Shown: in pieces, positions 28,494-60,595 of the stretch
Numbering within the stretch: position 1 is the stretch's first letter
How the letters are laid out: every line of letters starts with the position of its first letter
Assembly: GCA_965204535.1 (NCBI GenBank)
Contig: CBDBEV010000001.1
Span: 2,906,892-2,970,891, forward strand
Direction of reading: 5' to 3'
From: a bacterium
Lineage (GTDB): Bacteria > UBA8248
Length of the DNA stretch: 64,000 nt
Translations under genes and position numbers: made by a program
Notes under the pieces: generated by a model
Told to the model about the DNA's origin: nothing
Databases searched by the model: none
What the model saw: only the letters and a program-made list of their open reading frames with translations

Positions 28494-31160
28494 TCAAAGC
28501 GTCCGGGGGACAAAGCTTAAGCTCGTCAGCGAATGCTTGTGCGGAGATTCTCCTATCTTCTTCAACTTCCCCTTGCCCAGCTTGTAGCGGTAGCGGTTGG
28601 TCAGGGGGTCCGGCACCCGGTGGACCACCGAATTGGCCGGGTTCTCGGGAAAGCCGAAATAGGCGAAGGTGACGCCCTCGCGAACCGCGTCCGTGACCAT
28701 GGCCACCGCGGTGAAGCTCCCCTTGCTCTTCTTGATATTCCCGGCCTTCATGAGCTCGGTGAACGTCTGCTCCTTGCCGTCGACGCCGATGTATCCGCCC
28801 GTCTGCACGAGGAGGTCGTCGTTCTCGATGGCCACGAGGTCTCCTGATTCGATGCCCCGGGCGCCGGCGTCTTTGGGGTGAATTTCCAGGAACTGCTGCG
28901 GCCAGCGCTGCATGATGTAGGGCCGCCGCTTGTCGTCGTAGCCGGATTGCCAGAGCTCGTTGATCCGCCCGTTCGTCACCCACAGTTCGTCCCCCTGCGG
29001 GGTGACCCGGTCGTAGAAGTCCTTGAAATCCTCCCAGTAGCTTTTCAGCAAGACCGCCTTGCCGCTCTGGGTCCCGAAGGAGGTGAGCCACTTCCGGTGC
29101 ATGGTGGGCCCCTCGGGGGTTCCGAGTTCCAGGGTCTCGTCGTGGAGGCGCTTCGTCCCGACGAGTTCGCCCTTGACCATGCGGATGGGGGTTTGGATGC
29201 CGTCGGTCCCGTATTCGCGGAGCAATTCGTGGCCCCGTTTCCCCTCGCGCTTGGCCTTCACCACGAGCGGGTGGTAATTGAGCACCCCCTTGCGTCCGAA
29301 GCGGGCCGCTTCCTCGAAGATCTGGTTGCTGTCCTTCCAGTCGAAGCCCTTGAAGCCCATCTTCCTCGCGAAGGCCGCGATGATCCACCAGTCGGGCCGG
29401 GCCTCACCGGGGGGGTCGGCGAACTTGCTGTAGAGCCTGAGGCGGCGCTCGCCGTTGCACCGGGTGAAGTCCTCCTCGCCCCAGGTGGCGGCCGGGAGCA
29501 CCAGGTCCGCATACTCGGTTCCGATCGGGGAAACGGGATAGATGTCCTGGTGGGCGACGACCATGCCGCCGGAATCCACTCGCTGCTTGAGCGCGTCCAC
29601 CGCCGTATCGACGTCGAAGCTCTCGATCTGGTGCGGGTTGCGGCGCGTCAACCGCTGGAAGACGTCCATCAACTCCTGAGACGCCGCCATGGCCTGGCAC
29701 CAGGTGGTTCCGATGACCCATGCGAAGCGCACGTGGCCGTCCACGACCCAGCGGTCGAGGTCGATCTCCTTCTTGCGGCGCCCCGGCGCCTTCTCCGGCG
29801 ACAGGCTCCTCGGATAACCGGCCCCTCCCATCCAGCCCCGCTGGTGTCCACCGCCGCGGGAGATCACCCGGCCCGGCCGCGACCCGGCGCCGCAGACCAG
29901 CCCCAGCGCCGCAAAGGAAGCCGTGTTCCCGAAACTGTTGCACCAGTAATTGCCCTTCTCGAGCATGAACGAGGTCTTCTTGCGGGTTCCGTCGGGCTTG
30001 GGCTTGGCGAGGATTTCAGCCGTCTGGCGTATGGACGCCGCGGACACGCCCGTTATCTTCTCGGCGCGCTCCAGTTCGGCGTAGGGATAGCTCATGATCC
30101 ACTTCTTGTAGCCCTCGAAGTCCGTCCCGTACTTGCCCCAGGTCGTGACCCACTGCCAGGGCGTGTTGCGGGTGCCGCGCCCCATGCCGGAGCCGATCTC
30201 CCACTTGTTCGAGATTTTTCGCGCGATCCACTCCTTGTCCTCCCAGCCGTTCTCGAGGATCAGGCGGATGATGGCCAGGTGGAGCACCGTGTCCGTCCCC
30301 GGAATGACGGGGAGAAAGAGACCGCCGCGCTTCTCGCCGTAGGCCACGCCCGAAGTCTTGCGCGGCATGGCGAAGACGAGTTTCTTGCTCGGCGTTTTCC
30401 CGCCCATGATCCACGAGGTGAACAGCACCGACTTGGTCTCCCAGGGGTCGACGCCCGAGAAGAAGATGACCTCGGCCTCTCCCCAGTCGTCATAGGAGGC
30501 GCTGAAGGGGTTGATGCCGGAAAAATCGATCCCGGGCGTGTCCTTGCCGGGGCCCGGCTTGTCATGCGGGGCGTAGGCCGGCGTTCCGATGGCGCGGAAA
30601 GCGAGCTTGGAGATGGCGTAGGTGTTCTCGAAATACTGGTAGGAATACGTCTTCATCGCCCAGGCGTGCTCGCCGAACTTGTCCAGGACGTGCTTCGAGA
30701 TTCCCGCCATGACGCCCACCGCCGTATCCCACGAGACCTCCTGCAAGGTACCGCGGACCCGCATCATCGGCTGGCGCAGGCGGTCCTGCGAGGGTTCGTT
30801 GGGGTTGTAGAGCTTCTTGGCCAGGACGCCGCCCCGGATGGAGTGGTTCCCCCCGACGTTCACGACATTCGCATCCTTGTCCGGCATGACGACGACGTGG
30901 TGGGGACTGCCGTCCACCATGATGATGTTGTGCATGTTCGGGCTGACCCAGCCGCCGCTCATGATGGCGGTGGGGAAATCCACGCGCAGGGCGTTCTGGC
31001 TCGCCTTGGGTCCGCCCTCGCGACCGATCGGCCAGCGGTAGACCTTGTACCCGCAGCCCACGATGCAGTAGTCGCACGCCGTGGTGAACACCTCCGCGTT
31101 CGGCGGGGGGAGGGGGACACTGTCTTCCGCAAGATAGTAGTTCGTCACCTTTCCTGCCAT
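28494..31160 (-). CDS. idrA: AioA/IdrA-family molybdopterin oxidoreductase large subunit, most like iodate reductase IdrA
   Basis: PLPP..A....ACDYCIVGCGY [3Fe-4S] motif, VNVGGNHSIRGG, EKG.YW, SRGGGHQRG, NGERRLR, NGRINE. Adjacent to a Rieske subunit and two peroxidases. Confidence 0.8.
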   Translation of the reverse strand: MAGKVTNYYLAEDSVPLPPPNAEVFTTACDYCIVGCGYKVYRWPIGREGGPKASQNALRVDFPTAIMSGGWVSPNMHNIIMVDGSPHHVVVMPDKDANVVNVGGNHSIRGGVLAKKLYNPNEPSQDRLRQPMMRVRGTLQEVSWDTAVGVMAGISKHVLDKFGEHAWAMKTYSYQYFENTYAISKLAFRAIGTPAYAPHDKPGPGKDTPGIDFSGINPFSASYDDWGEAEVIFFSGVDPWETKSVLFTSWIMGGKTPSKKLVFAMPRKTSGVAYGEKRGGLFLPVIPGTDTVLHLAIIRLILENGWEDKEWIARKISNKWEIGSGMGRGTRNTPWQWVTTWGKYGTDFEGYKKWIMSYPYAELERAEKITGVSAASIRQTAEILAKPKPDGTRKKTSFMLEKGNYWCNSFGNTASFAALGLVCGAGSRPGRVISRGGGHQRGWMGGAGYPRSLSPEKAPGRRKKEIDLDRWVVDGHVRFAWVIGTTWCQAMAASQELMDVFQRLTRRNPHQIESFDVDTAVDALKQRVDSGGMVVAHQDIYPVSPIGTEYADLVLPAATWGEEDFTRCNGERRLRLYSKFADPPGEARPDWWIIAAFARKMGFKGFDWKDSNQIFEEAARFGRKGVLNYHPLVVKAKREGKRGHELLREYGTDGIQTPIRMVKGELVGTKRLHDETLELGTPEGPTMHRKWLTSFGTQSGKAVLLKSYWEDFKDFYDRVTPQGDELWVTNGRINELWQSGYDDKRRPYIMQRWPQQFLEIHPKDAGARGIESGDLVAIENDDLLVQTGGYIGVDGKEQTFTELMKAGNIKKSKGSFTAVAMVTDAVREGVTFAYFGFPENPANSVVHRVPDPLTNRYRYKLGKGKLKKIGESPHKHSLTSLSFVPRTL

Positions 31161-31172
31161 GATGCGTCCTCC

Positions 31173-31715
31173 TCAGCGCTGTACCGGCGCCAGATTCGAG
31201 TGATAACCATACAGCAGTCCCATCATCCCGATCGCGTAGATGTCGTCTCCTCGGGTTTCCAGAACCACCTGGGGGAGGCTTTCGGTGGCCTGCCCCGCCC
31301 CGACCATGCCGTGCTTCATCAGATCGAAGGTCGTCAGATGGAACGGGCACGGGCCGATGGCCTTGTGCTGCGCGTTATAAGTCCCCTGCAGGGGGCCGCC
31401 CATGTGGGTGCAGAGGGTGCTGAACGCCACCACGTCCCGCTTGGGGCCGACGCCGCCGCCGGCTTGAACGCCCAGTTTGACCAGCATGCACCCCGAGAAG
31501 ACGTCCTTCCACGGGTACTGGAAGAATTGCGGCGCATCGACCTTGAGGGCGCTGAGCGTCCCGATTTTCTGGCGGGGATACTCCGCCCTTTGCAGGGCCG
31601 CTCCGGCCAGGCCGGGGATGCCCTGGACCAGCACGATGCTCACGGCGGTTCCGCCGGCCAGGAGAAAGGCGCGCCGCGAGACGCAAGGCCGGGTTTCCTT
31701 GGCTTCCTGAGTCAT
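31173..31715 (-). CDS. idrB: AioB/IdrB-type Rieske small subunit with Tat signal
   Basis: SRRAFL twin-arginine leader, GGVGP..DVVAFS.LCTHMG, CPFH.T.FD, GQATESLPQV, GLLYG. Confidence 0.8.
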   Translation of the reverse strand: MTQEAKETRPCVSRRAFLLAGGTAVSIVLVQGIPGLAGAALQRAEYPRQKIGTLSALKVDAPQFFQYPWKDVFSGCMLVKLGVQAGGGVGPKRDVVAFSTLCTHMGGPLQGTYNAQHKAIGPCPFHLTTFDLMKHGMVGAGQATESLPQVVLETRGDDIYAIGMMGLLYGYHSNLAPVQR

Positions 31716-31725
31716 GGATTCCTCC

Positions 31726-32865
31726 TTACGGCATGGCCGCATACGGCGGCAGTTCGGGGGGCCGGACGAGCAGGGGCTTATCGCTCGAGAGCGATTCCAG
31801 AAACGCCAGCAGGTCTTCTTTCTCCTCGTCCGAAAGTCCCAGTTTCTTGATGAGGGGACTCTTGTTCGCATCCTCGCCGCCCCCTTCGTCATAAAAATCG
31901 ATGACCTCATCCAGTTCGAAAAATGCGCCGTTGTGCATATAGGGCGCAGTGTATTTGAGCTCCCTCAGGCTCGGGGTGCGGAACCTCCCCTTATCGGCCT
32001 CGCGCTTGGTGGTGTAGAAGAGCCCCAGGTCCCGGTCCGCCTTGCGGTAGACGGATTCGGGGACGCCGCGGATCACGTGCTGGTAGCGAAGCGTTATCTG
32101 CCTTAAAGGATCTTCCTCGAACGCGGGGCTCTTGGGAACGCCGACGTTGTGGTAGTCCTCATCCGAGAGGAGTGCGCCGTTGTGGCACTGGACGCACCCG
32201 GCCTTTCCCTGGAAGAGAGCCAGCCCGCGCTTCGCGCTGTCCGAGAGCGCCTTCTCCTCCCCTTTCATGAAGCGGTCGAAGGGCACGTCCTTCGCGTTGG
32301 AAACCACCGTGCGCTCGAAGGCCGAGATGGCCCGCCAGGCGTCGTCGATGGTCGGCCAGGGGGATCCGAACACCGCCCGGAAGCGCCTGACGTATTCGGG
32401 GACCTGGCGCAGGCGCTCCTCCATCATCATGGTGTCGCCGTTGCCGGCCACGTTGCCCGTGGCGGCGCTCTTCGCCTGCGCTTCGAGGCTCGTAGACTCG
32501 CCCGCCCAGAAGAGTTTTGCGTAGTAGGCGGAATTGAGGATCGTCTGGGAATTGCGCCAGTGCTGCGTGCCCGGATAGCCCCGGCTCAGATCGCCCCCGT
32601 CCCCCCAGCCGCTCTCGGGGCTGTGGCAGGAGGCGCACGACGTGCTGGCGTCGCCCGAGAGGCGGGCGTCGAAAAACAGCAGCTTGCCGAGCTCCACCTT
32701 GGCGGCGGACATGGGGTTGTCCGCGGGCACCGGGACAGGCGGCAAGGGTCCCAGCGGAGGGAATTTCCCCTCCTGGGCCGCGCTTGCTCCTCCCACCAGA
32801 AGTGCGGCGATGAAGCATACGGCCATCGTGGAACCCAGGAAGCAGTTTTTGATTCGCGCGTTCAT
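31726..32865 (-). CDS. Di-heme cytochrome c peroxidase/MauG family (IdrP-like)
   Basis: LGKLLFFD.RLS, CASCH, CVQCH, FRTPSLR, TAPYMHNG; start at 32865 with RBS gagga. Confidence 0.9.
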   Translation of the reverse strand: MNARIKNCFLGSTMAVCFIAALLVGGASAAQEGKFPPLGPLPPVPVPADNPMSAAKVELGKLLFFDARLSGDASTSCASCHSPESGWGDGGDLSRGYPGTQHWRNSQTILNSAYYAKLFWAGESTSLEAQAKSAATGNVAGNGDTMMMEERLRQVPEYVRRFRAVFGSPWPTIDDAWRAISAFERTVVSNAKDVPFDRFMKGEEKALSDSAKRGLALFQGKAGCVQCHNGALLSDEDYHNVGVPKSPAFEEDPLRQITLRYQHVIRGVPESVYRKADRDLGLFYTTKREADKGRFRTPSLRELKYTAPYMHNGAFFELDEVIDFYDEGGGEDANKSPLIKKLGLSDEEKEDLLAFLESLSSDKPLLVRPPELPPYAAMP

Positions 32866-32875
32866 GGCCGTCTCC

Positions 32876-33991
32876 TCAATTATCGCCGAGTTTGCGAAGT
32901 TCATAATCGGGAATTTTCGGCGCCGCAGCAAAAACCGTCTCGCCCGAGAGGCTCTTAAGGAACGCCACCAGGGCCTTCTTCTCATCCGCAGTCAGCCCCA
33001 GCGGCTTCAAGCGCGAGCTCTTGTTGGGGCCGCTCCCGCCGCCCCTGTCGTAGAAGGCGACGACGTCTTCAAGCGCGGCGAGTGCGCCGTTGTGCATGTA
33101 GGGCGCCGTCCGGGCGACTTCGCGCAGGGTCGGCGTGCGGAACTTGCCCCGGTCGCTCTCCTCTTTGGTCACGACGTAGAGGCCGGGGTCGGCCCTCAGG
33201 TTCATGAAGTTCGGGACGCCGATGACCTTGTTGAAGCGCCGGAAGGTGATGTGGCGCAGCGGGTCCTTGAATATCTGCTCGTTCTCGGGAACGCCGAGCG
33301 CGTGGAATCCGCCGTCGCTCAATAGCGCGCCGTTATGGCACTGAACGCAACCGGCCTTTCCGCTGAACAGGGCGAGGCCTTTTTGCGCCTCGGCGGAAAG
33401 GGCCTTTTTATCGCCCTTCAGGTAGTTGTCGAAAGGCGCGTTCTCCGAAGCGATGGTGTGCAGGAACGCCGCGATGGCCTTGAGCGCGCCGCCGAAGGAG
33501 GGCTCCCCGCCGTAGACCTCCTTGAATTTCTTCACGTAAAGCGGCACCTGCTTGAGCCGCTCGGGGAACAGCCGCCCGTCGACCAGCATGAAGTGGGCTT
33601 CGGTCAGGTGGTCCCGCACGAGCGTGGGCAGGTCGGCCCCGCTCAGGCGCCCGTCCCAGAAGACGCGCTTGTTGTAGGCGGCGTTTAAGAGCGTCTGGGC
33701 GTTCCGGAAATACTTGCTTCCCGGATAACCCGCCGAGAGCGCCTGCCCGTCGCCCCATCCCTTCGCGGGCTGGTGGCAGGCGGCGCAGCTGATCCCTCCG
33801 TCCCCCGACATCCGGGGGTCGAAGAACAGGTACCGGCCCAGTTCGGCCTGCGCGGGCTTCTGGGCCTTGGGCGCCGGCAGGGGCGCGAGAGAAGCCCCCA
33901 GGCCCGCGGCGGGGAGCAGAACCCAGGCGCTCAGCAGGACTCCGCAGAGTATCCGGCGCCGGACAACGCGAACTGATTTCATTCTTCGCAC
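32876..33991 (-). CDS. Di-heme cytochrome c peroxidase/MauG family (IdrP-like)
   Basis: LGRYLFFDPRMS, CAACH, FWDGR, CVQCH, FRTPTLR, TAPYMHNG. Confidence 0.9.
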   Translation of the reverse strand: MRRMKSVRVVRRRILCGVLLSAWVLLPAAGLGASLAPLPAPKAQKPAQAELGRYLFFDPRMSGDGGISCAACHQPAKGWGDGQALSAGYPGSKYFRNAQTLLNAAYNKRVFWDGRLSGADLPTLVRDHLTEAHFMLVDGRLFPERLKQVPLYVKKFKEVYGGEPSFGGALKAIAAFLHTIASENAPFDNYLKGDKKALSAEAQKGLALFSGKAGCVQCHNGALLSDGGFHALGVPENEQIFKDPLRHITFRRFNKVIGVPNFMNLRADPGLYVVTKEESDRGKFRTPTLREVARTAPYMHNGALAALEDVVAFYDRGGGSGPNKSSRLKPLGLTADEKKALVAFLKSLSGETVFAAAPKIPDYELRKLGDN

Positions 33992-35835: not shown

Positions 35836-36197
35836 AACCCCCCCTACCCCCCCTTGACAGGGGGGTATGAAAAGGCGACGCCCCGCCGCCGAGATGAACG
35901 CAAATCAACTCCCCCCTTGAGGGCCTGTTGAAAAACCCCTCGTCGAGCGGAATTGATTGCCGGAATGACAATCAAAAGCACATTCACCCGTAGGGGCGGC
36001 CCCCTGTGGCCGCCCTGCCCCGTGGCTACGCTTCGCACGGACAGGCACGGGGGCCTGTCCCTACGGTGAACAATTCGATGATCGGGATTCCTTCTCCACC
36101 GGAGGGTTTTTCAACAGACCCCCAAGCGGGGAGTTGATCTTTTTTTTGCGGGGGTTGCTCTTTTTACCCCCCTGACAAGAGGGGGCAGGGGGGGTTG
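35836..36197. repeat. Nested palindrome cluster containing a ~199-bp MITE-like element (35922-36120)
   Basis: TIRs ggcctgttgaaaaaccc / gggtttttcaacagacc (16/17 match) sit inside two outer inverted pairs and enclose GTAG REPs. Confidence 0.75.
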
Positions 36198-36348
36198 CAT
36201 TCCAGCCGGGGGAAGGGCGGCCACGGTCGAACTCCCCTCTTCGGGAAGTTCGACACCCCTACGGGTTCGTTACGTTACGATCGGTTTTCGTAGGGACAGG
36301 CCCCCGTGCCTGTCCGTGGCCCCCGTGCCTGTCCGGGGCCGGGCGTCC

Positions 36349-37293
36349 TCACGGCCCGTAGCGCAGCCGCGCCGTCGCGCCCTGTTTCGCGAGCTGGCCC
36401 TGCGCGTAGCGCCCCGGCATGGCGGGCGAGCGCCAGCGGCCGGCGATTTGCATCTCGACCAGCGACGCGCCCGCCGTGACGAGGCTCTGCGCGCTGCCCA
36501 CCCTGAGGCTGTGCCCGCTGATGCGCCCCTCCAGGCCCGCCTCCCGGGCGCGGCGGACGATGATGCGCCGGATGCCCCTCTCCGAGAGGCGCCCCGCCTG
36601 CACCCGGCCCGACCTGTGGACGGCCCGGAAGAGCGCTCCTTCTCCGAGACCCGACCCCTCGAGCCAGGCCCCGACGCGCGCCAGGGTCGGGTCGCCCATA
36701 AACTGCAGGACGCCCGCGCCCTCCTGGTCCGTCTTCGAGCGCCGGACCAGCACCGTCTTCTCGCCCAAGTCCATGTCGGCGACGTCGAGCGCCGCGACCT
36801 CCGACACCCGGAGCAGGGCGTCGCTCGCCACCGCGATGATCGCCGCGTCGCGCAGCCCGCCCAGGGTCCCCGAGCGCTCGGCCAGCGCCGCCGCGCGGTC
36901 CGCCTGCTCCCAGCGAACGCCCGCCACCTTGCCGCTCCCGCGCTCTGCGGCCAGGCGCCGGAAGCCGGCCAGCACCCGCTCGGCGGCCGCCCCCACCGGG
37001 GAGGGCCACCCGCCCAGCTTCGCCCGGAAGCGCAGCGCCGCGACCGCCATGGAGGCTGCGGCCGCGGACAGCCCCCCCTCGTAGAGGTCCCCCAGGTACG
37101 CCGCCACCCCGGCGTCGGTCTCCGGGCGGCCCGAACGCTCGAACCCCCTGAGCGCCGTCTCGTACGCCCGCCGCGTGTTCCTGGACATCGACGCCTTCGC
37201 CAGGTCGGCGGCCGGGCGGGCCGGCGCCAGGGCCGGCCCCCTCGTCGAAGCGGCGTCCTGTACCGGGTCGGGTGGTGTCGCCCCCGTCGTCAT
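36349..37293 (-). CDS. Cre-like tyrosine recombinase
   Basis: S.NTRRAY N-terminal domain; catalytic LLRVSE (R), SKTD (K), SGHSLR (HxxR), GRW (W), GRY (Y). Confidence 0.92.
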   Translation of the reverse strand: MTTGATPPDPVQDAASTRGPALAPARPAADLAKASMSRNTRRAYETALRGFERSGRPETDAGVAAYLGDLYEGGLSAAAASMAVAALRFRAKLGGWPSPVGAAAERVLAGFRRLAAERGSGKVAGVRWEQADRAAALAERSGTLGGLRDAAIIAVASDALLRVSEVAALDVADMDLGEKTVLVRRSKTDQEGAGVLQFMGDPTLARVGAWLEGSGLGEGALFRAVHRSGRVQAGRLSERGIRRIIVRRAREAGLEGRISGHSLRVGSAQSLVTAGASLVEMQIAGRWRSPAMPGRYAQGQLAKQGATARLRYGP

Positions 37294-37478
37294 GGAGAGA
37301 AGCCAGCCTTCCGGGTCGGCGGCCGTTTCCGTTTCCCGAGGCCGCTCGAGCGCCACGTTGCGCCCGGGGGTCTCGTCAGGTGCCGAGTATAGACGGCGGC
37401 GGGGAATTTCCAAGAAAAAAAGCTGTTCCTGCAGGCGAATGTAGGCGGAGCCCCAAGCGAAGCGGCGGGTTTTCTGAA

Positions 37479-37681
37479 GTCCGATAATTGCTGTTATCAG
37501 ACAATATAATATCTCTCACGGCCATGTCAAGCGCAATTCCGGGGTCCCCGGAGGGGTTTCGGAGGCCGTTTTGCGCTTTTTTTCGCTTATTTTTCGCTCA
37601 TTTGCAGCCCGAATGCGCCCCGAAACGGGTTTTCCGGCGGAAAACGGGGTTTCTGGGGGCTGATAACAGCAATTAGCGGCC
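37479..37681. promoter_or_regulatory. Candidate invertible DNA segment bounded by two inverted 24-bp recombinase sites
   Basis: Left gtccgataa-ttgctg-ttatcagac (37479-37502). Right site (37658-37681) reverse-complemented reads ggccgctaa-ttgctg-ttatcagcc, 21/24 identical. Confidence 0.75.
37503..37530 (-). promoter_or_regulatory. Sigma-70-type promoter inside the candidate invertible segment
   Basis: Minus strand TTGACA (37525-37530), 16 nt, TATATT (37503-37508). Confidence 0.65.
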
Positions 37682-37911
37682 CCCAGGCCGGGAAAGGTGG
37701 GCGCATACCGCAGGGATTCGCCTCTCGCGGAACGACTCACTACCGGCCCGGACCATGAAAGGGTTCAAGTCCGCCGTATTCCAGGCGGCCCAAAATGCGA
37801 ATCACCAGTTTGTGAAGGCCCGAAATGAAAGCTGACGAAAGGAGGTTAATCGGAGAAAGCCGGAAATTCACGGAAAATCCCTTTTTCTATGTATCCAGGA
37901 GGACTCACTAA

Positions 37912-39804
37912 ATGATGTTCAAAGAGAAATCGATAAACAAGCTCTACGCTTTCGCGCTGGCGGCCGTGTTCGCGCTGACGCTGGCGGGCTGCGGCGGTGG
38001 CGGCGGCAGTGCTGCTGCGCCGGACCCGGAGCCGCCCGCGATGCCGGAACCGACCGCGGAGGAGACCTGCGAGGCCGACGGCGGCCGGTATAACGAGGAC
38101 GGCTCGTGCACCTCCGCCGCGGACCTTGCCGAAGAGATGGCCCTGAGCGGCGCGCAGGAAGCCGCCATGGCGGCGTATATGGCGGCGGCGGCGGCAGTAG
38201 CCGGCGCGGTGGACCCAGTGGCGATGGCGAACGCGCAGGCGCACGCAAACGCGGCCATGACAGCATCCGCCTCGGCGGCGGCGGCCACGGATTCGGCGAC
38301 GGCCATGGAGCACCAGATGGCGGCAGAAGCGGCCCGCGACATGGCGATGGAAGCGGCCGGCGAGCGCGGCCTGGCAATCACCAAGCTGGCGAACGCAAAC
38401 GCCAACCAGGCCGCCATCGACAGCGCCAAGCTCGTCGGCGTTGCGGTTCCCGCCCCGATATCCAATGCGGGAAGAGTGGGCAGGGCGATAGGAGCCGCTG
38501 CGGTGGCGACAGCCACGAGCGCCGATGGCAATGTCGACGGTAACAATGATACTACTGCAGATGATACTACCCAACAAGGCGCAGTGGTCACGGCATCGGC
38601 GAGCGACACCGGCAGTGGTCCCAGGTTAACGGTATCGGCGACGCCGGTCGGCGACTCCAACACCGCCAACAACGCCGTTACTTCACTGAGGAGAGGCGAA
38701 AGCCCAACGGCGATCACGACGCGCGGCGGCTGGGCGGGCGTCGAATTGGTCGCGTCCGCTGCTAATTCCGCTACTGACGCTGCGGCTACGGGTTACAGGC
38801 AGAATGCCCTCGTCTTCACGGACATCAATCCGCCCGCGCAGAGTTACAATACTACGGCTGAAACGGGCGCTATTCTTGATCTCTCTACAGCAACCGTAGT
38901 AGACACCACTGGAGATGGGACAGGAAATGCACCTGCAGTAAACCGGTCTGTAATCACCGGCGAGATTCCGGGAGACGGAAGCCACTTCACGGGAACGTTC
39001 AATGCGAACCCCACAGACAACAACCCGGCCCGGTCGGGACGGTTCTTCTGTCCTTCCGGCACGCCCTGCTCCATAAGCGTAGACGCCTCGGGTGTCCTCA
39101 GGGGAGTTGCGGGCTATCAGTTCCACCCCGCCCGAGCCGGGACTGTGATGCGGGGAGACTCGGACTACCTGACCTGGGGCGTTTGGGTGCACGTTCCAAA
39201 CGGCTTGCAAGCAACGAGCGCAACCGGTCTTACGAACCCCGCAACCGTCGCCGCATTCGCCAGCGGCAGGGACCCGTTCCAGGTCCCGGCCGATCTCACG
39301 GGCACGGCGACGTATAACGGCGTCGCGAACGGCCTGTATTCGGCGGGCGGCATGGTCGAGTACTTCGAGGCGGACGCCAGCCTGACGGCCGATTTCGGCG
39401 GCAGGGGCGCCAACGATTCCACTCCCGCTACACCTGGGAGCGACAACGGCCTCTTGGGAGCCGTCACCGGAAGCATCTCCAACATCAAGGCGGGCGGCAT
39501 GGACGTCGAAGGTTCGCTGACGCTGGGTAGGGCGCCGCTGGTCGCCGGTGATCCTGCGGCTGCGGCTGCTCCTACTGCTGGTTCCCCGGCTAACATCTTC
39601 AGAGGCAACACCCAAGGCACCCTGGGCGGCAGGGCCATGCAAGGTTCCTGGACAGGCAGGTTCTACGGTCCCAACAGGGCGCAGGGCGTGGCGGTCCGAA
39701 CCGAATTCCCCACGACGGCTGCCGGCACCTTCGGCGCCAGAACGCCTGCCGGCGCCCCAGGGGTCAGCATCCTGGGCGCATTCGGCGCGCACAGGCAGGA
39801 GTAG
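37912..39804 (+). CDS. Surface lipoprotein with C-terminal TbpB-like beta-barrel
   Basis: RBS aggagg; lipobox LAGC plus GGGGG; Ala-rich stalk; DYLTWGVW, GTATYNG.A.G, LTADFG, W.GRFYG, AGTF, terminal GAFGA. Confidence 0.8.
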   Translation: MMFKEKSINKLYAFALAAVFALTLAGCGGGGGSAAAPDPEPPAMPEPTAEETCEADGGRYNEDGSCTSAADLAEEMALSGAQEAAMAAYMAAAAAVAGAVDPVAMANAQAHANAAMTASASAAAATDSATAMEHQMAAEAARDMAMEAAGERGLAITKLANANANQAAIDSAKLVGVAVPAPISNAGRVGRAIGAAAVATATSADGNVDGNNDTTADDTTQQGAVVTASASDTGSGPRLTVSATPVGDSNTANNAVTSLRRGESPTAITTRGGWAGVELVASAANSATDAAATGYRQNALVFTDINPPAQSYNTTAETGAILDLSTATVVDTTGDGTGNAPAVNRSVITGEIPGDGSHFTGTFNANPTDNNPARSGRFFCPSGTPCSISVDASGVLRGVAGYQFHPARAGTVMRGDSDYLTWGVWVHVPNGLQATSATGLTNPATVAAFASGRDPFQVPADLTGTATYNGVANGLYSAGGMVEYFEADASLTADFGGRGANDSTPATPGSDNGLLGAVTGSISNIKAGGMDVEGSLTLGRAPLVAGDPAAAAAPTAGSPANIFRGNTQGTLGGRAMQGSWTGRFYGPNRAQGVAVRTEFPTTAAGTFGARTPAGAPGVSILGAFGAHRQE

Positions 39805-39821
39805 CAGGACAGCACGCCTTT

Positions 39822-39854
39822 CGGCCCCGGGCGTCGGCATGACGCCCGGGGCCG
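39822..39854. promoter_or_regulatory. 14-bp perfect hairpin between the two lipoprotein genes
   Basis: cggccccgggcgtc-ggcat-gacgcccggggccg; no U-tract. Confidence 0.6.
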
Positions 39855-39961
39855 GGGGATGAATGAACGCGGCACAAGGCGTCGCGCAGGAAGTAGATGG
39901 AATCTGGCTTTATCCGCTCGCCCCTTCCGTTTTCCCGGAAGGAACCAGCCTTAGGGGGCAA

Positions 39962-41665
39962 ATGATGAAAATGCTCAAGCTTTTGGGATTGATGGTATTT
40001 GTCGTGTGCATTGCGGCATTTGCCTCCGGTTGCGGCGGTGGCGGCGGCGGTTCTGCCCAGATGCCGGATACGACTCCGCCCGTGGTGGACCCGGACCCGG
40101 ACCCGGAACCGACCGAGCCGACCGATGCGGAGAGGATAGCCTCGGCGAGGCAAATGCTCGCAACCATCCTCACAGAAGCTCGCAGTCTGGCGTCAACGGC
40201 GAGCTCGGTAGCGGCGGCGGTGCAGTTCCACCCCGACGCCACGGCGGAGCAGGTAGCAAGCGCGCTCGGTTATGCAGCCGACGCGCAATCGGCCCTGGCG
40301 GCTGTCGAGGCCGCGAGGGACGCCGGGAATGCGGCCGCCATCACGCTCGCGCAGGCGCAAACGGCGGTGACGGACGCGCAGGCGGCGCTCGCCGACCTGA
40401 CGGCCGCGCAATCGGCTGTGGCGTCTCTCCAAAGCGCCGTGGAAGCGGTTGCGAGCCAACGCCAGCAAATGGTAGCGGACGAAACCGCCCTGACGAACAA
40501 CTCCTCCCTCATCAAGCACGTGAGAGCCAACAAACTCCTCTCCGACGCCGTGTTGGCCGAGGCCGCCCTGACTACTGGTAACACCTTCAATGACGGCAGC
40601 ATTTTCGTTGGCCCGGCCGGCAACTCGGGCCCGTCCAGTACCGACCCTCGTACTGCTTGCGCTGCGCCGTGCGCCGAATTCCCTGCGAATATCGGGACGG
40701 GCGCGACAGCGGTTACCGGACAGCGGACGGTCCGAATAGGAACCCTCGTATCGGACAGCACGACGCCTACGCTTACCGGAACGGCCCGCCTTCCCCATGG
40801 CTTCGATCTGGACAACGGCACCCCCGCCACAGACCCCACTATCTTCGTCAACGCCTACACGGATATCGCTCAAGAGAGAAGGGTAAGAAATATCACCTCT
40901 GCAGATGCTCCTGATACGCCTCACGACGAGCGGTATGACTACAAGCCCGACACCGACTATCTGATCGCCGGAATCTGGCTGACGGTGAACAGCTCAACTT
41001 TGAGCGCATCCAGGATCACGGCATTCGCGTATGGTGGCCAACCCCTCTCCCTCGCTCCAGCCTTCTGTACTACAGTTGAAAGTAATACTAGTTCTCAATC
41101 CAATACAACTAGCAGAGTATGCGCTAATCCTGCTGCTACTGCGTTCAGCACCATCGGCGGATTCGTTGACGACGGCAAGGATGTAACGGCCACCTACACG
41201 GGGGATGCGAACGGCGCCTACATCGCGGGAGGAGATACGGGCTATTTCACGGGGAGCGTCGAGCTCACCGCCGAGTTCATCAATCCGACAACTGGGGATA
41301 AGAGGGGCAGCATTCAGGGCGCAGTCAGCAACATCTCCGCCGGTGGACAACCCATGGCGGGCAGTATCGAGCTGCAGAAACAGACCCTTGCTGATGACAT
41401 AGGCGCCGCTTTCGCTGGCGGTATGGCCGTCGGCGTGGTGGACGGAAAATCCTTCAGTGGCGGCTGGAAGGGCCAGTTTTTTGGACAGAGAGCCACAAGG
41501 TCCGTATCATCAGCGACGAACGTGGGTGATCCAACGATAACAGACGTAACAACAACGTATACGTCCCAGGCTCCCGGTTCGGTGGCGGGAACATTTTACG
41601 CCACCCAGCGGAGCAATCCGGCGGGAGACGCCGCCTTCATCGGGGCATTCGGAGCGCACAGGTAA
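39962..41665 (+). CDS. Second surface lipoprotein with C-terminal TbpB-like beta-barrel
   Basis: Lipobox ASGC plus GGGGGG; PDPDPEP linker; DYLIAGIW, ATYTG.A.G, LTAEF, WKGQFFG, VAGTF, terminal GAFGAHR as in the upstream paralog. Confidence 0.8.
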   Translation: MMKMLKLLGLMVFVVCIAAFASGCGGGGGGSAQMPDTTPPVVDPDPDPEPTEPTDAERIASARQMLATILTEARSLASTASSVAAAVQFHPDATAEQVASALGYAADAQSALAAVEAARDAGNAAAITLAQAQTAVTDAQAALADLTAAQSAVASLQSAVEAVASQRQQMVADETALTNNSSLIKHVRANKLLSDAVLAEAALTTGNTFNDGSIFVGPAGNSGPSSTDPRTACAAPCAEFPANIGTGATAVTGQRTVRIGTLVSDSTTPTLTGTARLPHGFDLDNGTPATDPTIFVNAYTDIAQERRVRNITSADAPDTPHDERYDYKPDTDYLIAGIWLTVNSSTLSASRITAFAYGGQPLSLAPAFCTTVESNTSSQSNTTSRVCANPAATAFSTIGGFVDDGKDVTATYTGDANGAYIAGGDTGYFTGSVELTAEFINPTTGDKRGSIQGAVSNISAGGQPMAGSIELQKQTLADDIGAAFAGGMAVGVVDGKSFSGGWKGQFFGQRATRSVSSATNVGDPTITDVTTTYTSQAPGSVAGTFYATQRSNPAGDAAFIGAFGAHR

Positions 41666-41960: not shown

Positions 41961-41995
41961 TGAAAGGACAGCCCCTCCTCATCAGGGGATAAAAA

Positions 41996-42450
41996 CAACC
42001 CCCCCTACCCCCCCTTGACAGGGGGGTAAGAAAAGGCGATGCCCGCCAACGAGGGGGTGGAAGAAAAGCCCCTCTGCGTTGGTTCTTCCTTCATCAGTCA
42101 GGAATGACCCCCAAGGTATTTCACTCCCCCCTTGAGGGGGAGTCGAAGAGGCCGAGCCTTGGCGAAGGCCGATTCGGTGGGGGGACATGCTACCGAAAAA
42201 ACTCCCCCCACCGGTTCGGTTTCGGGCAAAACCCCCCTCACCTCACCGTCTGGCTTTCCCCTCGGGAAGCCAGACCCTCAAGGGGGGAGTTGATTGCATA
42301 TCTCGCGCGTGAAGGGATGACCCCCAAGGGGGGAGTGAATCTTTTCTCTACTCCGTCGCCAACTTCCCTCAAGGGGGGAGTTTATCTTGCTCGTTCATCG
42401 AGGCTTTTTCATACCCCCCTTGACAAGGGGGGGTAGGGGGGGTTGGTTTT
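41996..42450. repeat. Nested REP/MITE-like palindrome cluster
   Basis: Outer caaccccccctacccccccttg pair (41996 and ~42445) encloses several actccccccttgagggg / ccctcaaggggggagt units. Confidence 0.8.
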
Positions 42451-43420: not shown

Positions 43421-44293
43421 TTACCGGTTGAGGACTTGCTTCCAGTTTCTGCGCAACGGTCGTAGCCAGATGTCCTTTTTCGGTTGGTCTCGTTTCGTGT
43501 ATCTGTCGTAGCGTCCACGCCCCTGGGTCATACCGACGTGAATCCACCCCGATGCCCTGTAGACGGCGCCGGTGTAGCGCGGCGTCTCGACGAAGGTCTC
43601 GACGAGGACGGGTGTCGTGCCATAGCGCTCGGTCCAGTCCTCGGGCAGGCGCCTGCGGATGATGGCGAGGAGGTGTGAGCCGAGGTTGAGGATCCTGATC
43701 CATGGCAGGATGAGGAACCTCGGGTTGTCGACCACGAGGGGGAGGTTCTTCTCGCGCAGCTGCGGCGTCCAGCCGATGAAGCTGTCGCGCGGGGCGAGCT
43801 TCCACGCGGCGGTGGAGAAGCCGAGCATGGCGAGGGGCCTGCCGCCCCGGTCGTGGACGGCGTAGCGCATCTGCGCGCCGACGAGGGTCTTGTAGCCGAG
43901 GTAGTGGTAGCGGGCGACGAACTCGTTCCAGAGCCTGCCCTCGCGGGTTCCGCGCACGGCGACGCGCATATCGAGGGGGCGGACTTCGTCGAGGGTCTCA
44001 GGCGCCGGGATGAGGGGAGGTTCGGTGTCGGGTCCGAAGACGATCGGCCCGGGCCGGTTCTGGCGCCACTTCGGTGGGGGCAGCGTGATCAGGCCGTCCT
44101 TGTGCATGGCCAGCATAGTCACCCGGGCCATCATGTCCTTGAGTCCGCCGTCGGGCTTGTACCAGCCGATTCGGCGGCAGAACTCCTTCGATAGCGCATG
44201 GCGGTTGAGCGCAGGTGGACCTGCGATCAGTTCGCGCAGCAGCGCCATCTCTTCCGTCGTGAAGTCGCGTCCGTGGTAGCGGCACTCGGTCAC
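43421..44293 (-). CDS. DUF4338 (DruA-like domain) protein inside the IS
   Basis: R..LS..FC...W....G.LK, YHYLGY..LVGAQMRY, RD.FIGW, N.RFLILPW, ETFVE...G..YRASGW..VG.T.GRG. Confidence 0.85.
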   Translation of the reverse strand: MTECRYHGRDFTTEEMALLRELIAGPPALNRHALSKEFCRRIGWYKPDGGLKDMMARVTMLAMHKDGLITLPPPKWRQNRPGPIVFGPDTEPPLIPAPETLDEVRPLDMRVAVRGTREGRLWNEFVARYHYLGYKTLVGAQMRYAVHDRGGRPLAMLGFSTAAWKLAPRDSFIGWTPQLREKNLPLVVDNPRFLILPWIRILNLGSHLLAIIRRRLPEDWTERYGTTPVLVETFVETPRYTGAVYRASGWIHVGMTQGRGRYDRYTKRDQPKKDIWLRPLRRNWKQVLNR

Positions 44294-44297
44294 GGCG

Positions 44298-46652
44298 TCA
44301 TCCCGGCGCCGTGAGGGCGCGCCTGCGCTCCGTGCTCATCGACCAGGGCAGCCACGCGGAGAGGTCCCCGGGCGCCCGGCCGCCGTTCTCCGCGCAGGCC
44401 GTGAGCCATGCCTCCAGCCAGCGGAGCGGGTCGACCCCGTTCGACGCGAGGGTTCCGAGGACCGAGTACATCATCGCCGTAAACCTGGCGCCGGCCTCGC
44501 TGTCGGAGCCGAACGAGAGCCGCCTGCCGATCACAGGGCCCCGAAGCGCACGTTCGCTGGCGTTGTTATCCATCGGCACCGAGGGGCGTTCGATGAAGAC
44601 GCTCAGCCCCTCGCGGTGGTTCAGCAGCGAGCGAAGCGCCTTGCCCTCGCGCGCCTGCGCGGGCAGAGCGGCCATCTCCCGTCGGGCCTGCGCGAACAGG
44701 TCCTTGAGCGCCTTCTTCAATTCGTCGTGCGCCGCGTCGAACGCCGCATCCTGGCGTTCGACGCCCGGGTCGTAACTGGCCAGGCGCGCCTCGTTCAGGC
44801 GGTAAAGCAAGGCAATCCGCTCGATCCATCTCTCGCACCACGGCGTCAGCCGCTCATCGCCGGCGGCGCAGTGGATATAATCGCGCCGGACGTGACTCCA
44901 GCACCATGCGAGAGTCACCAGACCCCCGGGAATGCGCGCCAGCTTCTTGTAGGCGCTGTAGCGGTCGCAGACGATGACCGTATGGGAGCCGGCCGCGCCG
45001 AACAGCTTCATCGCGACCTCAGCACTCCGCGAGGGGTCGACGTGGAAGTAGACGGAGTCTGCGCTGACCGAGGTCCACAGCCAGGCGCGGCTCGAGCGTC
45101 CTTGTTCGCGAAGCGACTGAACGCGCCACGTCGTCTCGTCCCCGTGACGCACCGCCGCTTCGTTCTGGCGGTCGAGGATCGCCGCAGCCAGCGGCTCGAA
45201 GAGCGGCGTGAAGCGGTGCGTGCTGTCGCCCAGTGTGCCTGCAGAGACCGGAAGCCCCTGGTCGGAGAGCCACGCGGCGACCCGGCGCAGCGGGCGGAAG
45301 CAGGCGTAGCGCTCGAACAGGAAGCGCGCCCACACGCTCGTCCCGTAAGGCGTGCCCGCGAACAGGCGCGGCGCGGCGGGCGCCGACACTTCCACCGGAG
45401 ACGACGCGCACGCGCATCTCCTGCGCCATCTCGGACGGCGGATGACGCGCTTGTGGGCCGAGACTTCGATCTCGAAGATGGAGGAGACCTCGGCGCCATT
45501 GGCCACGTAGGGCTTCCCGCAACCGGCGCAGACGCGCGCACCGGCCGGCGGGTTGCGAACTTCGGTCCTCTCATCGAGCGCGGGCCGCGGGGTGCGGCCA
45601 TGACCGGCGGCGCCGGGTTGCCGGCCGCGCCTGCGCTCCGAGCGCGGCCTCTCCTGCCGTTCGCTCTTGCGCCCGAACAGTCTTCTCGCCAGCACCGCTC
45701 CGGTGGCGCGAAGCTTCGCGAGATCGGCCTCCAGCCGCGCCCGGATGGTCTCTGACTTGCGGAGCGCCCTGCGAAGACGCCCGTTCTCCCTCGACAGCGA
45801 CCTGAGCGCCGTCTTCTGGCGCCGCGACCTCCCCAGGGCCTTGCGCAGTTCCTCATCTGCACGAGACGGCGACTTCGAGCGCGCCGCCTCGAGAGCGCGC
45901 AGCAACCGCGCCTTCAGCCGTTCGGTCGCAATGCCTACGGCCCCCAGGGAGACTTCAAGACGGTAGACCTCCGCAGACAGCGACTCGACCACCTCCGCCT
46001 GGTCGCGCAATCGCCTCAACTTCCTGTAGAGCCCGATGGCCTCCTCGTCCAGGCTCCGAATGGTCTCCTTGTCGGTCGCCGACTTCTGCTTCTCCAGGGC
46101 CAGACGATCTTCGAGCCGGGCAACTTCCTTCTCCCGCCGGCCGACCTCCTTGCGCAGGGCATGAATCGTCTCCTTGCGCTCCTCCAGGGCCTTGCGCAGC
46201 CGCCCCGCCTCCCCCGGCGACGGCACGCCCGAGAGCTCCTTGCGAAGCCGGACGACCTCCATGCGCAGCGACATGAGCGGGCTGCGCTTGCGCGGATCGA
46301 CCCCCGCCTCCGCAAGCAGCTTCTCCAGCCGCGCCACTTCCGCCTTGAGCGACAGCGCGTCCTTCGCCGCGCGGCGGGCTTCCTTCGCCTCCCCGGCGGC
46401 CGCCTCGAGCTTCTTCCGGCTGGCGTCGAGATGCCGCTTCAGCTTGCCCGCACGGGAGCGGGAATCCACTTCCGCCCAACGCAACTCCTCGCAGCGCGCC
46501 TCCGCCGCCTCCGCGCGCGCACGCTCGCGCTCGTACAGCGAACGCCAGTACGCCTCTGCGGTTGTGGACAACCCGGGGGAATGAGGCCATGGCTCATCCG
46601 GCCTCTCGGCCAACGCCAACTCCGTCTCGACAGCTTCTGCGCGAATCTTCAT
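44298..46652 (-). CDS. IS66 transposase (TnpC) with long N-terminal coiled coil
   Basis: LFGRKSER, G.QPG..GH, CAGCG zinc finger, HGDET, CDRYSAY, CWSHVRR, DNNASERALR. Confidence 0.92.
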   Translation of the reverse strand: MKIRAEAVETELALAERPDEPWPHSPGLSTTAEAYWRSLYERERARAEAAEARCEELRWAEVDSRSRAGKLKRHLDASRKKLEAAAGEAKEARRAAKDALSLKAEVARLEKLLAEAGVDPRKRSPLMSLRMEVVRLRKELSGVPSPGEAGRLRKALEERKETIHALRKEVGRREKEVARLEDRLALEKQKSATDKETIRSLDEEAIGLYRKLRRLRDQAEVVESLSAEVYRLEVSLGAVGIATERLKARLLRALEAARSKSPSRADEELRKALGRSRRQKTALRSLSRENGRLRRALRKSETIRARLEADLAKLRATGAVLARRLFGRKSERQERPRSERRRGRQPGAAGHGRTPRPALDERTEVRNPPAGARVCAGCGKPYVANGAEVSSIFEIEVSAHKRVIRRPRWRRRCACASSPVEVSAPAAPRLFAGTPYGTSVWARFLFERYACFRPLRRVAAWLSDQGLPVSAGTLGDSTHRFTPLFEPLAAAILDRQNEAAVRHGDETTWRVQSLREQGRSSRAWLWTSVSADSVYFHVDPSRSAEVAMKLFGAAGSHTVIVCDRYSAYKKLARIPGGLVTLAWCWSHVRRDYIHCAAGDERLTPWCERWIERIALLYRLNEARLASYDPGVERQDAAFDAAHDELKKALKDLFAQARREMAALPAQAREGKALRSLLNHREGLSVFIERPSVPMDNNASERALRGPVIGRRLSFGSDSEAGARFTAMMYSVLGTLASNGVDPLRWLEAWLTACAENGGRAPGDLSAWLPWSMSTERRRALTAPG

Positions 46653-47979: not shown

Positions 47980-49245
47980 GTTGCCTGAAAAACTTTGTCA
48001 AAGGAGCAACCCCCCCTACCCCCCCTTGTCAGGGGTCAAAACCGACCGAAGAGGGAGGTTTTGCAAGACGATGTGTTTCTCGCCAATGGCTCATGCAAAC
48101 GCTCGTTCCTCACTCGCGCTTGACCTCTGACAAGGGGGGGTAGGGGGGGGTGGTTTTCGGGGCGAGCGGGCGGTTTGCGGTTTCCGTAGGGACAGGCCCC
48201 CGTGCCTGTCCTTGGTCCCCGTGCCCTTCCTGTATCGAGGTGAATACGACCGACGGGCGGCCACAGGGTCAGACATATATGTCTGACCCCTACGGAAATC
48301 TCTGCCCTCTGTCGATGGTAAAAATTCACTCCCCCCTTGAGGGTCTGGCTTCCCGAGGGGAAAGCCAGACGAGGAAGGCGAGCGGTTTGTGCGAAGGCTG
48401 AATCGGTGGGGGGTGAAATGCGTTTTATTGCCAGTCCGAATTATACCCCCCACCGAATCGCTTTCGGGCTGACGCCCTCAGCTCTTCGACTCCCCCTCAA
48501 GGGGGGAGTTGATTTATGTTCATCTCGGCGGCGGGCATCGCTTTTTCATACCCCCCCTTGACAGCGAACAAAGGCAACCCCCCTTATCAGGGGTCAAAAC
48601 CGACCGAAGAGGGAGGTTTTGCAAGACGATGTGTTTCTCGTCAATGGCTCATGCAAACGCTCGTTCATCACTCGCGTTTGACCCCTGACAAGGGGGGGTA
48701 GGGGGGGTTGGTTTTCGGGGCGAGCGGGCGGTTTGCGGTTTCCGTAGGGACAGGCCCCCGTGCCTGTCCTTGGCCCCCGTGCCCTTCCTGTATCGAGGTG
48801 AATACGACCGACGGGCGGCCACAGGGTCAGACATATATGTCTGACCCCTACGGAAATCTCTGCCCTCTGTCGATGGTAAAAATTCACTCCCCCCTTGAGG
48901 GTTCTTGCCACCCGACGAGAGAGCAATTCACTCCCCCCTTGAGGGTCTGGCTTCCCGAGGGGAAAGCCAGACGAGGAAGCCGAGCGGTTTGTGCGAAGGC
49001 TGACTCGGTGGGGGGAGCTTTTATCCGTGGCATGTCCCCCCACCGAATCGCTTGCGGGCTTCGCCCTTAGCTCTTCGTCGGCCTTCCCGAGGAGGAAAGG
49101 CCGACCCTCAAGGGGGGAGTTGATTGCATATCTCGCGCGTGAAGGGACGACCCTCAAGGGGGGAGTTGATTTATGTTCATCTCGGCGGCGGGTGTCGCCT
49201 TTTCTCACCTCCCGTCAAGGAGGGGTAGGGGGGTGGTTTTCGGGG
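47980..49245. repeat. Large REP/MITE mosaic with a ~316-bp direct duplication
   Basis: 48029-48344 is repeated nearly identically at 48587-48902 (offset 558); several palindrome families are present. Confidence 0.85.
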
Positions 49246-49656
49246 CGGGGGCGCATTTGCCCGCATTTGCCGTCATCAATGAAACAGCGGACTGCGCTAT
49301 CGTGCGCGCGACGCGGGGAAGGGGTTTTTCCCCGGCGGATTGAGGCGCAGGCAGAGGAGGCTTTCTCATGGGATGGGGTGATGGAGCGGGGAAGCGTAGC
49401 GAGAATGGGTTCAGGGACGGCACGGAAATAAAAATAATGATATTTCCCGTAAAATACGATTAATAATTGTCATGAACCCGGTGTCGGCGCGATAGTATGA
49501 TTGACTACGTATGTCTACGATAACTGATTGTTTATAATACCATATTTCTGTTATTTCGTACCCAGCTACCCCTTGCATTTTCGCCATACATATGCTTAGA
49601 TAGCCTCCAGTTTGATGTCGCACGTATGCGTTTTGATTACAGATTCAGGAGGGAAG

Positions 49657-50832: not shown

Positions 50833-50833
50833 A

Positions 50834-52009: not shown

Positions 52010-52236
52010 GGTCACAGCAGGCGCGCGCCGGCCAGGTGTTTGCCCGCGCCCGGAGCCGGTGATAAATTCGGGAGTGCCTGAAACTATTTCGTTTCCATAA
52101 TATTTGACAAATATTTCAAAATAAATATTATTCTCATCCTGCAAAACCTTTCTGGAAAAAATCAAGCAACAGACTACCCAGGCCACAACCGCCTATGTGT
52201 CCAAAAATCTTTTTGGGGTTTAAATAAGGAATTGCA

Positions 52237-52686
52237 ATGAAAAAAGTAATGAGCTTGATCCTTTCTGCATTCCTGACATTCGGTTGTGTTCCTTCCCCCG
52301 ATGGTATTTCGGCTGCTTATGTATCTCCCTTGCAATACCGGTCCTTGAAATGTTCTCAACTACTTGAAGAATATAGAAGAGTAAACTACAGGGCCATTGA
52401 GGTAACAAAATTCCAAAGGGCCGAATCGGAACAAAGTACTGGTGCAATGGCAGTCGGCTTGATTCTGTTTTGGCCGGCGCTTTTCTTTGTTAGTGGAACG
52501 GACAGGTCTCCGGAATTGGCGAGGTTACGGGGAGAGGTTGAAGCAATAGAAAAAACCGCTATCAGGAAAGAGTGTTACGAACTTACCGAAACGATTAGAG
52601 AAGAACGTTCACGCGCAAAAGTGGAAGCGGAACAAGCCGCAAAGAAACAAAAACAACAGGAAGAAAAAGAGAAGGAATTGCCATAG
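52237..52686 (+). CDS. Low-GC putative lipoprotein
   Basis: MKK leader with lipobox TFGC; I.A.YVSP.QY....C, hydrophobic GLILFWPALFF, ELARLRGE..A; AT-rich flanks. Confidence 0.75.
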   Translation: MKKVMSLILSAFLTFGCVPSPDGISAAYVSPLQYRSLKCSQLLEEYRRVNYRAIEVTKFQRAESEQSTGAMAVGLILFWPALFFVSGTDRSPELARLRGEVEAIEKTAIRKECYELTETIREERSRAKVEAEQAAKKQKQQEEKEKELP

Positions 52687-52836
52687 TAAAATCGATTGAT
52701 TTAATTATATAGAAAAACCTTGAAATAAAGTTTCGGCACTATTGTATATAATTCCCATAAATTTCATTCCATTCAACAGGTTATCCGAATCATTCATCTC
52801 AGGTTTTTCACCCGGACGGGGTGCGGGAGGAGTCCT

Positions 52837-53130: not shown

Positions 53131-53363
53131 TTGGCCGGTTCCGGGGTCGGGAAGGACCGGGCCGGCAACGTCCGCATCGGCGCAGGGCCCCGCGCCGCAA
53201 GACGGCGGGAAAAGCCAGGACACGGCCTTCGTGACGACCGGTGGATTCGCGGGCGGAACCCGGAGAGGACCGCTCCGCCTCGGCCCGAGCAGCGTCGAAG
53301 CCGCGTATCGAAGGGGCCTGTCCCGGGCCCGCCGGAGGGCGAAACCCGCGCCCCCATCCTTCG

Positions 53364-58328: not shown

Positions 58329-58421
58329 GGAAATCCCCCCGGGGAGGACTTCCGCCCGCAAGACGTCTCGCCGGCCCGGCGCCGGCCGCACGATTCCATC
58401 CACCCCAGGGAGGGAGGCGGG

Positions 58422-60587: not shown

Positions 60588-60595
60588 GCTCACCA

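Follow-up and report, generated by a model that had tools for sequence, protein, structure and literature searches.

A promoter segment between lox-like sites, probably inverted by a Cre-like recombinase family, upstream of predicted surface lipoprotein genes in a likely sponge symbiont

Within the window, a 64,000-nucleotide stretch from a bacterium of the lineage UBA8248, we analysed a locus at which an intact gene for a Cre-like tyrosine recombinase and two genes for predicted surface lipoproteins diverge from a short promoter-bearing segment enclosed by two inverted, lox-like sites. G000 denotes here the genome of the window, C1 and C2 its contigs, and L-numbers the loci compared with it. 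From left to right, the locus is made up of the following features:

36349-37293, minus strand: intact Cre-like tyrosine recombinase, 314 aa from a likely ATG at 37293, matching PF00589
37386-37413, minus strand: predicted fixed promoter, putatively of the recombinase, TTGGAA-16-TATACT, outside the invertible segment
37415-37466, minus strand: weak hairpin before a T7 tract (37421-37415), a degenerate form of the terminator-like element of paralogs
37474-37507, plus strand: left lox-like site, 14-6-14, core TTGCTG at 37488-37493, with an inner arm that overlaps the -10 element
37494-37666, no strand: putative invertible segment, 173 bp core to core, in the predicted OFF orientation for the lipoproteins
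37503-37530, minus strand: predicted sigma70-type promoter, TTGACA-16-TATATT, with an alternative -10 TATTGT at 18 nt
37653-37686, minus strand: right lox-like site, 14-6-14, core CAGCAA at 37667-37672, the reverse complement of the left core
37687-37911, plus strand: conserved leader with the ribosome-binding site AGGAGG, 86-94% identical among paralogs
37912-39804, plus strand: lipoprotein 1, 630 aa, with lipobox LAG-C27, poly-Gly, an Ala-rich stalk and a predicted handle and 8-stranded barrel of TbpB/HpuA type
39962-41665, plus strand: lipoprotein 2, 567 aa, with ASG-C24 and poly-Gly

The central dyads of the two sites, at 37479-37502 and 37658-37681, are inverted relative to each other and identical in 21 of 24 positions; these coordinates, the cores and the distance of 173 bp agree with an earlier note on this DNA. 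That note had taken the arms to be 9 bp long, but arm conservation across the 55 site pairs described below reaches 14 bp, so that the sites measure 34 bp and are loxP-sized. An 18-nt site pattern matched twice in the window, against 0.01 matches expected. The sites agree in size and position with the description of Cre-type sites (34 bp, 13-bp inverted half-sites, an 8-bp spacer, less than 1 kb from the recombinase gene), of which the active ones carry a T at half-site position 7 and GATA adjoining the spacer, according to the available part of PMC10250229. Among the 55 pairs, the outer-left arm has this T in 93% of cases and adjoins the spacer with G (87%), A (93%), T (100%) and A (100%), the inner promoter arm has the T in 100%, and in the remaining two arm types the T is less frequent. 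Read from the sequence, the right site is a 13-8-13 palindrome with two asymmetric positions. The left site has five, where the search of PMC10250229 permitted two, because it overlaps the -10 element.

The leftward promoter-like motif that had been noted between the sites is indeed present at 37530-37503 on the minus strand. The promoter pattern gave 3 matches in 1 kb against 0.2 in shuffles, one of them being the same -35 element with an 18-nt spacer. TTGACA is found in all 55 segments, as is a [TA]AnnnT hexamer at a distance of 16-18 nt; a TG precedes the 16-nt hexamer in 53 of the 55, the window segment being without it. As the -10 element overlaps the inner arm, transcription would begin inside the site, and a bound recombinase could dampen the promoter. 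Within 260 nt downstream of the right site, a promoter-like motif was found at none of the 55 loci, which is weak evidence because the pattern is insensitive and matched upstream of just 1 of 16 lipoprotein genes that have no switch. The idea that the leader holds a riboswitch was also rejected, since the two weak matches that Rfam gave both lie outside the leader and neither is credible.

The recombinase is intact and Cre-like, as had been claimed: its best matches in the PDB are Cre (E ~1e-13), and the equivalents of all six Cre catalytic residues (R173, K201, H289, R292, W315 and Y324) align. Its scores stay far below the curated cut-offs for a Fim-type invertase (23 against 222 bits), which bears out that the enzyme is not of FimB/E type, and for the XerC/XerD models (48 against 335 and 36 against 330 bits). 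The genome holds eight intact copies that are 71-96% identical to each other, all with the catalytic motifs; the copy in the window is 71-82% identical to the other seven. No relatives were found in viral contigs, and a phage origin of the recombinase was rejected on this ground. A search with an approximate dif-like pattern gave no match.

Is the pair of inverted sites around a promoter a common motif beside such recombinases? The segment occurs in 17 copies in the genome of the window, nine of them without an intact adjoining recombinase. Together with 38 of 43 loci fetched from 11 other genomes of the genus (five segment-less loci were dropped), these copies gave the 55 site pairs from 12 genomes tabulated here. 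Across the genus, the recombinase is present in 12 of 23 genomes and the promoter-plus-site pattern in 11 of 23, all among those 12; the twelfth recombinase-bearing genome contains a diverged pair (L079). Of 32 more distant recombinase loci, 5 showed a site pair, compared with 0 of 320 shuffles, and three loci beyond the genus combine a matched inverted pair with a promoter-like motif: L093 and L094 of Latescibacterota, and L071, where a related switch at 4337-4540 has a matched core of 7 bp rather than 6 bp. Other pair searches at distant loci gave 3 of 41, 7 of 41 and 1 of 32, the last being a direct repeat inside coding sequence.

The cores are matched within pairs. They are exactly complementary over 6 bp in 54 of the 55 pairs, and 23 distinct cores occur. 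When cores were permuted, matches averaged 3.3 and reached at most 13 in 100,000 permutations, and for the window's own genome 17 of 17 were observed against a mean of 1.5; this test is inflated by kinship, yet for every distinct core both sites had to change. A comparison within pairs shows differences at 1 of 330 core positions, against 650 of 1540 arm positions, and the invariance of the AA/TT adjoining the core is partly built in because the search required it. Since strand exchange by Cre-type enzymes needs core identity, as stated in the available part of PMC10250229, matched cores are the pattern to be expected. Between loci, the cores diverge: among the paralogs of the window's genome, cores are 63% and segments 90% identical, and in G002 the values are 74% and 92%. 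The cores differ in five of five syntenic comparisons, and the loci syntenic with that of the window carry other matched cores, namely TTGATG (L032 in G002 and L052 in G016) and TTATTA (L145 in G018).

Inverted copies are found directly in the genomes. In the window's own genome, 15 segments have the orientation seen in the window and two are flipped (C2:567k and C2:2391k); altogether 6 of the 55 pairs are flipped, and a seventh flipped copy, in G002, was found later. In these copies, the outer arms are unchanged and the inner arms exchanged at the cores. One syntenic pair has both states, G000 C2:2207k being OFF and G002 L044 ON, with flanks of 92-97% identity around an inner part that aligns in reverse. 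Given both orientations in nature and the matched cores, inversion is well supported for the family as judged from the sequences, and for the window locus we infer it. Thus, we consider it likely that the promoter segment between the lox-like sites is flipped by the Cre-like family and thereby switches the two predicted surface lipoproteins from OFF to ON; an invertible promoter in an orientation that leaves the lipoproteins OFF, as first proposed for this locus, gains strong support from core covariation and from flipped paralogs and orthologs.

Several observations weigh against this interpretation. Promoters, terminator and surface location are predictions only, and the genome contains 42 PF00589 matches, from among which we infer the inverting enzyme. 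The flipped joint of the window locus, queried with 501 bp, was absent from the Logan contigs of all four runs (X1-X4), in two of which (X1 and X2, which may represent the source sample) contigs bridge the sites solely in the window's orientation; contigs drop rare variants, so they cannot exclude a rare flipped form. Among the matching runs listed, none was of RNA. A wider contig search likewise gave none at the sites among the 15 of 64 joints listed. The three syntenic orthologs of the window locus (L032, L052 and L145) are all OFF, and with 49 of 55 pairs OFF, switching may be rare or biased. A single pair, L039 (G002, 5025-5227), has mismatched cores and, by prediction, is either fixed in the OFF state or in the middle of a core change. 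Insulation between loci is suggested yet incomplete, because some loci have a core in common (13 cores in 17 loci here, 8 in 15 in G002). The compared genomes are close kin rather than independent, and several of the genus are fragmented. Finally, 27 of the 32 distant recombinase loci gave no site pair, and Poribacteria (0 of 6) and Binatia loci gave none, under a rule built on the arms of the window's genus.

Would a flip also silence the recombinase? The earlier note had argued for a self-regulating switch, with the invertible promoter as the main promoter of the recombinase, such that turning ON silences the enzyme and latches the state. The promoter does face the recombinase, the hairpin of the window is not significant (about -10 kcal/mol, z +1.3 and +1.87), and such a mode may hold at those loci that have an intact recombinase alongside but neither T-run nor fixed motif, 7 of 23, including C2:567k and C2:1583k. 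Nevertheless, we regard self-regulation as unlikely at the window locus. The promoter-like motif at 37413-37386, which like the T7 tract had gone unmentioned before, lies outside the segment; it recurs at 14 of the 23 loci with an intact adjacent recombinase, at 6 of 9 with a fragment and at 2 of 23 with none, and its -10 retains TA..T in the G002 ortholog. In paralogs, hairpins are as stable as -16 to -22 kcal/mol (z -4 to -6.6), and a significant hairpin with a T-run separates the switch from the recombinase at 10 of the 23 intact and 7 of the 9 fragment loci. Moreover, seven more intact recombinases exist in the genome, 9 of its 17 switches are without an intact neighbour, and flipped copies are found among the switches of this kind (C2:2391k, L044 and L045). 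Because the hairpin of the window is weak, read-through in the OFF state may add to recombinase expression, and a flip probably would not silence it.

Alternatively, the sites might serve chiefly for cassette movement and cargo exchange, with inversion as a rare historical event instead of ongoing phase variation. By eye, synteny with a G000 switch was seen for only 4 of the 15 switch loci of G002, the cargo at syntenic loci is 32-39% identical between flanks of 92-97%, and no flipped contig was seen at the window locus; by sequence comparison, cassettes and cargo seem to turn over quickly. The inverted orientation of the sites, however, leads to inversion and not to excision, and the strict matching over 23 core types, the conserved internal promoter and the promoterless leader point to selection on local inversion, so that we hold this account to be quite improbable. 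Inversion by a host enzyme (XerC/XerD or another tyrosine recombinase), with the Cre-like gene as a passenger, could draw on the 42 PF00589 matches and on the switches without an intact adjoining copy, and TAA-N6-TTA centres are found in Xer sites too. It is very unlikely in our view: the sites are near-symmetric with Cre-type half-site features, and among the 11 genus genomes without an intact Cre-like gene, ten have no switch and the exception, G005, has one of its switches beside a broken copy. The two dyads could also form one composite resolution site like rst of the TnpS/TnpT system of Tn3-family transposons, with an independent promoter for the lipoproteins; rst, too, lies upstream of a tyrosine recombinase and holds inverted-repeat pairs, according to the available part of PMC7157771. 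In that definition the divergent gene is the tnpT helper, whereas here it encodes a lipoprotein with a predicted TbpB-type fold, and the leader is without a promoter-like motif at all 55 loci. This alternative, which had been raised from the start, is already contradicted by the flipped copies with their exchange at both cores and strikes us as extremely improbable.

For promoter inversion by the Cre-like family, we envisage that four recombinase monomers would pair both sites and swap strands across the 6-bp core in the manner of Cre. In the ON state, transcripts would begin in the inner arm, pass the core and the leader and continue into the lipoprotein genes, and the Slam homolog of the genome would export the encoded proteins. 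The recombinase would likely depend in both states on a fixed promoter of its own, and the eight intact copies would likely act on all 17 switches in trans, which is the simpler reading because there are seven other intact copies and nine switches without an intact neighbour. Differing cores would reduce recombination among distant switches, and each locus would flip largely alone. We speculate, as a tentative reading that as a whole has somewhat less than an even chance, that this amounts to a natural multiplexed Cre/lox circuit, in which one recombinase family drives about 17 independent flips, each addressed by its own 6-bp core, much like engineered lox variants that are incompatible with one another; the cores would have been selected to differ, sparing the chromosome from scrambling, and the result would be a combinatorial surface code in a sponge symbiont, with shared cores allowing occasional swaps of lipoprotein cargo between loci.

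What would the switches control? Both lipoproteins of the window have a signal peptide, a lipobox cysteine and poly-Gly as read from the sequence, and Pfam and NCBIfam gave no family for either. The TbpB-like nature that had been ascribed to both is supported by a structural model for lipoprotein 1 and by homology to it for lipoprotein 2. The model of lipoprotein 1 (residues 201-630, alignment of 119 sequences, pLDDT 89.6) shows eight long strands at model residues 265-428 and matches hemophilin (Z 15.3), the TbpB C-lobe (14.5) and HpuA (14.3), with Z 13-15 overall including fHbp; the structural alignments have an rmsd of 3.6-4.3 over 194-213 residues, Foldseek agrees, and the lead came from the ESM Atlas. 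Lipoprotein 1 is thus predicted to have a fold of TbpB/HpuA type. The C-terminal part of lipoprotein 2 is 29% identical to lipoprotein 1 over 272 columns (E 2e-16), and this homology suggests a Slam-type barrel there as well. Between the two genes, neither a promoter-like nor a plus-strand terminator-like match was found, and lipoprotein 2 is likely co-transcribed with lipoprotein 1. A Slam homolog is encoded at G000:C2:795287-796156 (PF04575, E 1.6e-29, above the cut-off) and adjoins a related lipoprotein gene.

Most switches of the genome are followed by the leader seen in the window and by a lipoprotein gene, and a few lead to other predicted surface proteins. A flipped switch precedes a 1253-aa Calx-beta/cadherin-like protein (L147:869-4627), another switch has as cargo a 539-aa protein with RTX calcium-binding repeats (L149:2788-4404), and an MpaB/Lcp-like oxygenase follows a switch without the leader (L150:472-1650). 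In G020 and G013 (L127-L139), related lipoprotein genes are clustered with the 3' end of the leader and without the site pair, possibly an unswitched ancestral state. Where a lone site-like match stands at the start of a lipoprotein gene (G013, G020 and others), it was rejected because it is signal-peptide coding sequence. A flipped ON switch is followed by two lipoprotein genes in tandem, each encoding 901 aa (2725 bp, 99.9% identical); downstream of them, a solo hybrid site with a truncated leader (L151, G000:C2:561245-561268) is possibly the scar of one cassette inserted into another. Many switches, though not that of the window, have a conserved gene (about 235 aa; for instance L147:5346-6062) that converges on the recombinase; its product carries an excisionase-like HTH_17 domain at the C-terminus, and it is a candidate directionality factor or mobile-element remnant.

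In E. coli, a surface structure is controlled by the fimS element, a single locus with a short invertible promoter that depends on host factors and has genes for tyrosine recombinases (FimB/FimE) close by; the present enzyme differs in its low score against the Fim-type model. Cre, by its native role, resolves dimers of phage P1. With Cre/loxP and mined Cre-type systems, the present system shares the catalytic residues, the 34-bp site, the T at position 7, GATA and a site beside the gene (PMC10250229, available part), while here a promoter lies between two inverted sites at a distance of 179 bp and many natural core variants occur in one genome. The arrangement would work like the mpl genes (P35 family) of Mycoplasma penetrans, 38 dispersed lipoprotein genes, most of which are thought to turn ON and OFF independently of one another through a tyrosine recombinase and invertible promoters next to them, as far as the available parts of PMC2268961, PMC8593674 and PMC3599477 describe; this likeness lies in dispersed lipoprotein genes with adjacent invertible promoters, and the present system differs by a Cre-like enzyme, eight copies of it beside switches, loxP-sized sites and Slam-type beta-barrel cargo. 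In Bacteroides fragilis (Mpi, Tsr19/BF2766 and Tsr0667), one recombinase inverts both local and distant promoters of surface structures, with a bias to OFF at the local one; Mpi belongs to the serine recombinases, whereas here the recombinase gene itself is multiplied, and the available part of PMC4747536 mentions neither Cre/lox geometry nor core diversification. The lipoproteins resemble Slam-dependent TbpB, HpuA, fHbp and hemophilin in lipobox, linker, handle and 8-stranded barrel, with a Slam homolog in the genome (PMC9090332, available part), and differ from them in identities of 15-26% in structural alignments, a long Ala-rich stalk and the lack of a Pfam match.

A literature search on invertible promoters, Cre-like enzymes, sponge symbionts and autoregulated invertases, with the primary mpl papers and one inverton survey outside its range, found no description of this system; the roughly 500 predicted recombinase/site pairs of PMC10250229 could include relatives. 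What is new, in a bacterium that is likely a sponge symbiont, are the Cre/lox-type parts, the locus-specific cores (less so if mpl repeats have them also) and cargo of Slam type. Most of the smaller-share runs with a readable label are sponge metagenomes, and the host bacterium is likely such a symbiont. Promoter inversion is a familiar mode of phase variation in pathogens and gut commensals and would occur here at scale in a bacterium of this kind, and Cre-like chromosomal enzymes would thereby gain a natural regulatory job. The 23 matched core variants offer a natural test of core-based insulation and a candidate source of orthogonal recombinase/site sets. With about a dozen diverse Slam-type surface proteins whose predicted ON/OFF state could be read from DNA reads, symbiont surface variation in sponge hosts becomes testable without culture.

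Some further observations concern the genome and the surroundings of the locus. Both ends of C1 (C1:1-20 and C1:1593640-1593653) fall inside the core of one switch site, with a 4-base overlap, and the core of this switch is identical to that of the window; the breakpoints could reflect mixed orientations or between-locus recombination in the sample. Window positions 49228-64000 and G000:C2:1-14714 match adjacent stretches of C1 of about 15 kb, at 183-198 kb and 201-215 kb, at more than 99%. As both C2 ends match C1, a single chromosome broken at a repeat probably underlies the two contigs. The possibility that C1 is a replicon of its own or an excised circle was rejected, as it carries the only tRNA-Gln, -Tyr, -Trp and -Asn of the genome and shares these stretches with the C2 ends.

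Palindromic high-copy repeats, which we take to be REP- or MITE-like, lie on both sides of the cassette (window 36032-36348 and 41990-42450) at very high contig depth and include a perfect 30-bp inverted pair at 36036-36065 and 36289-36318. Further to the left, window 28494-33991 encodes a molybdopterin oxidoreductase, a Rieske protein and two cytochrome c peroxidase-like proteins, presumably an arsenite oxidase-like cluster judging from the translations. To the right, an insertion-sequence-like ORF pair at 43421-46652, presumably IS66-like, occurs in six or more near-identical copies; positions 49612-50832 separately encode an integrase of phage type that has an arm-binding domain.

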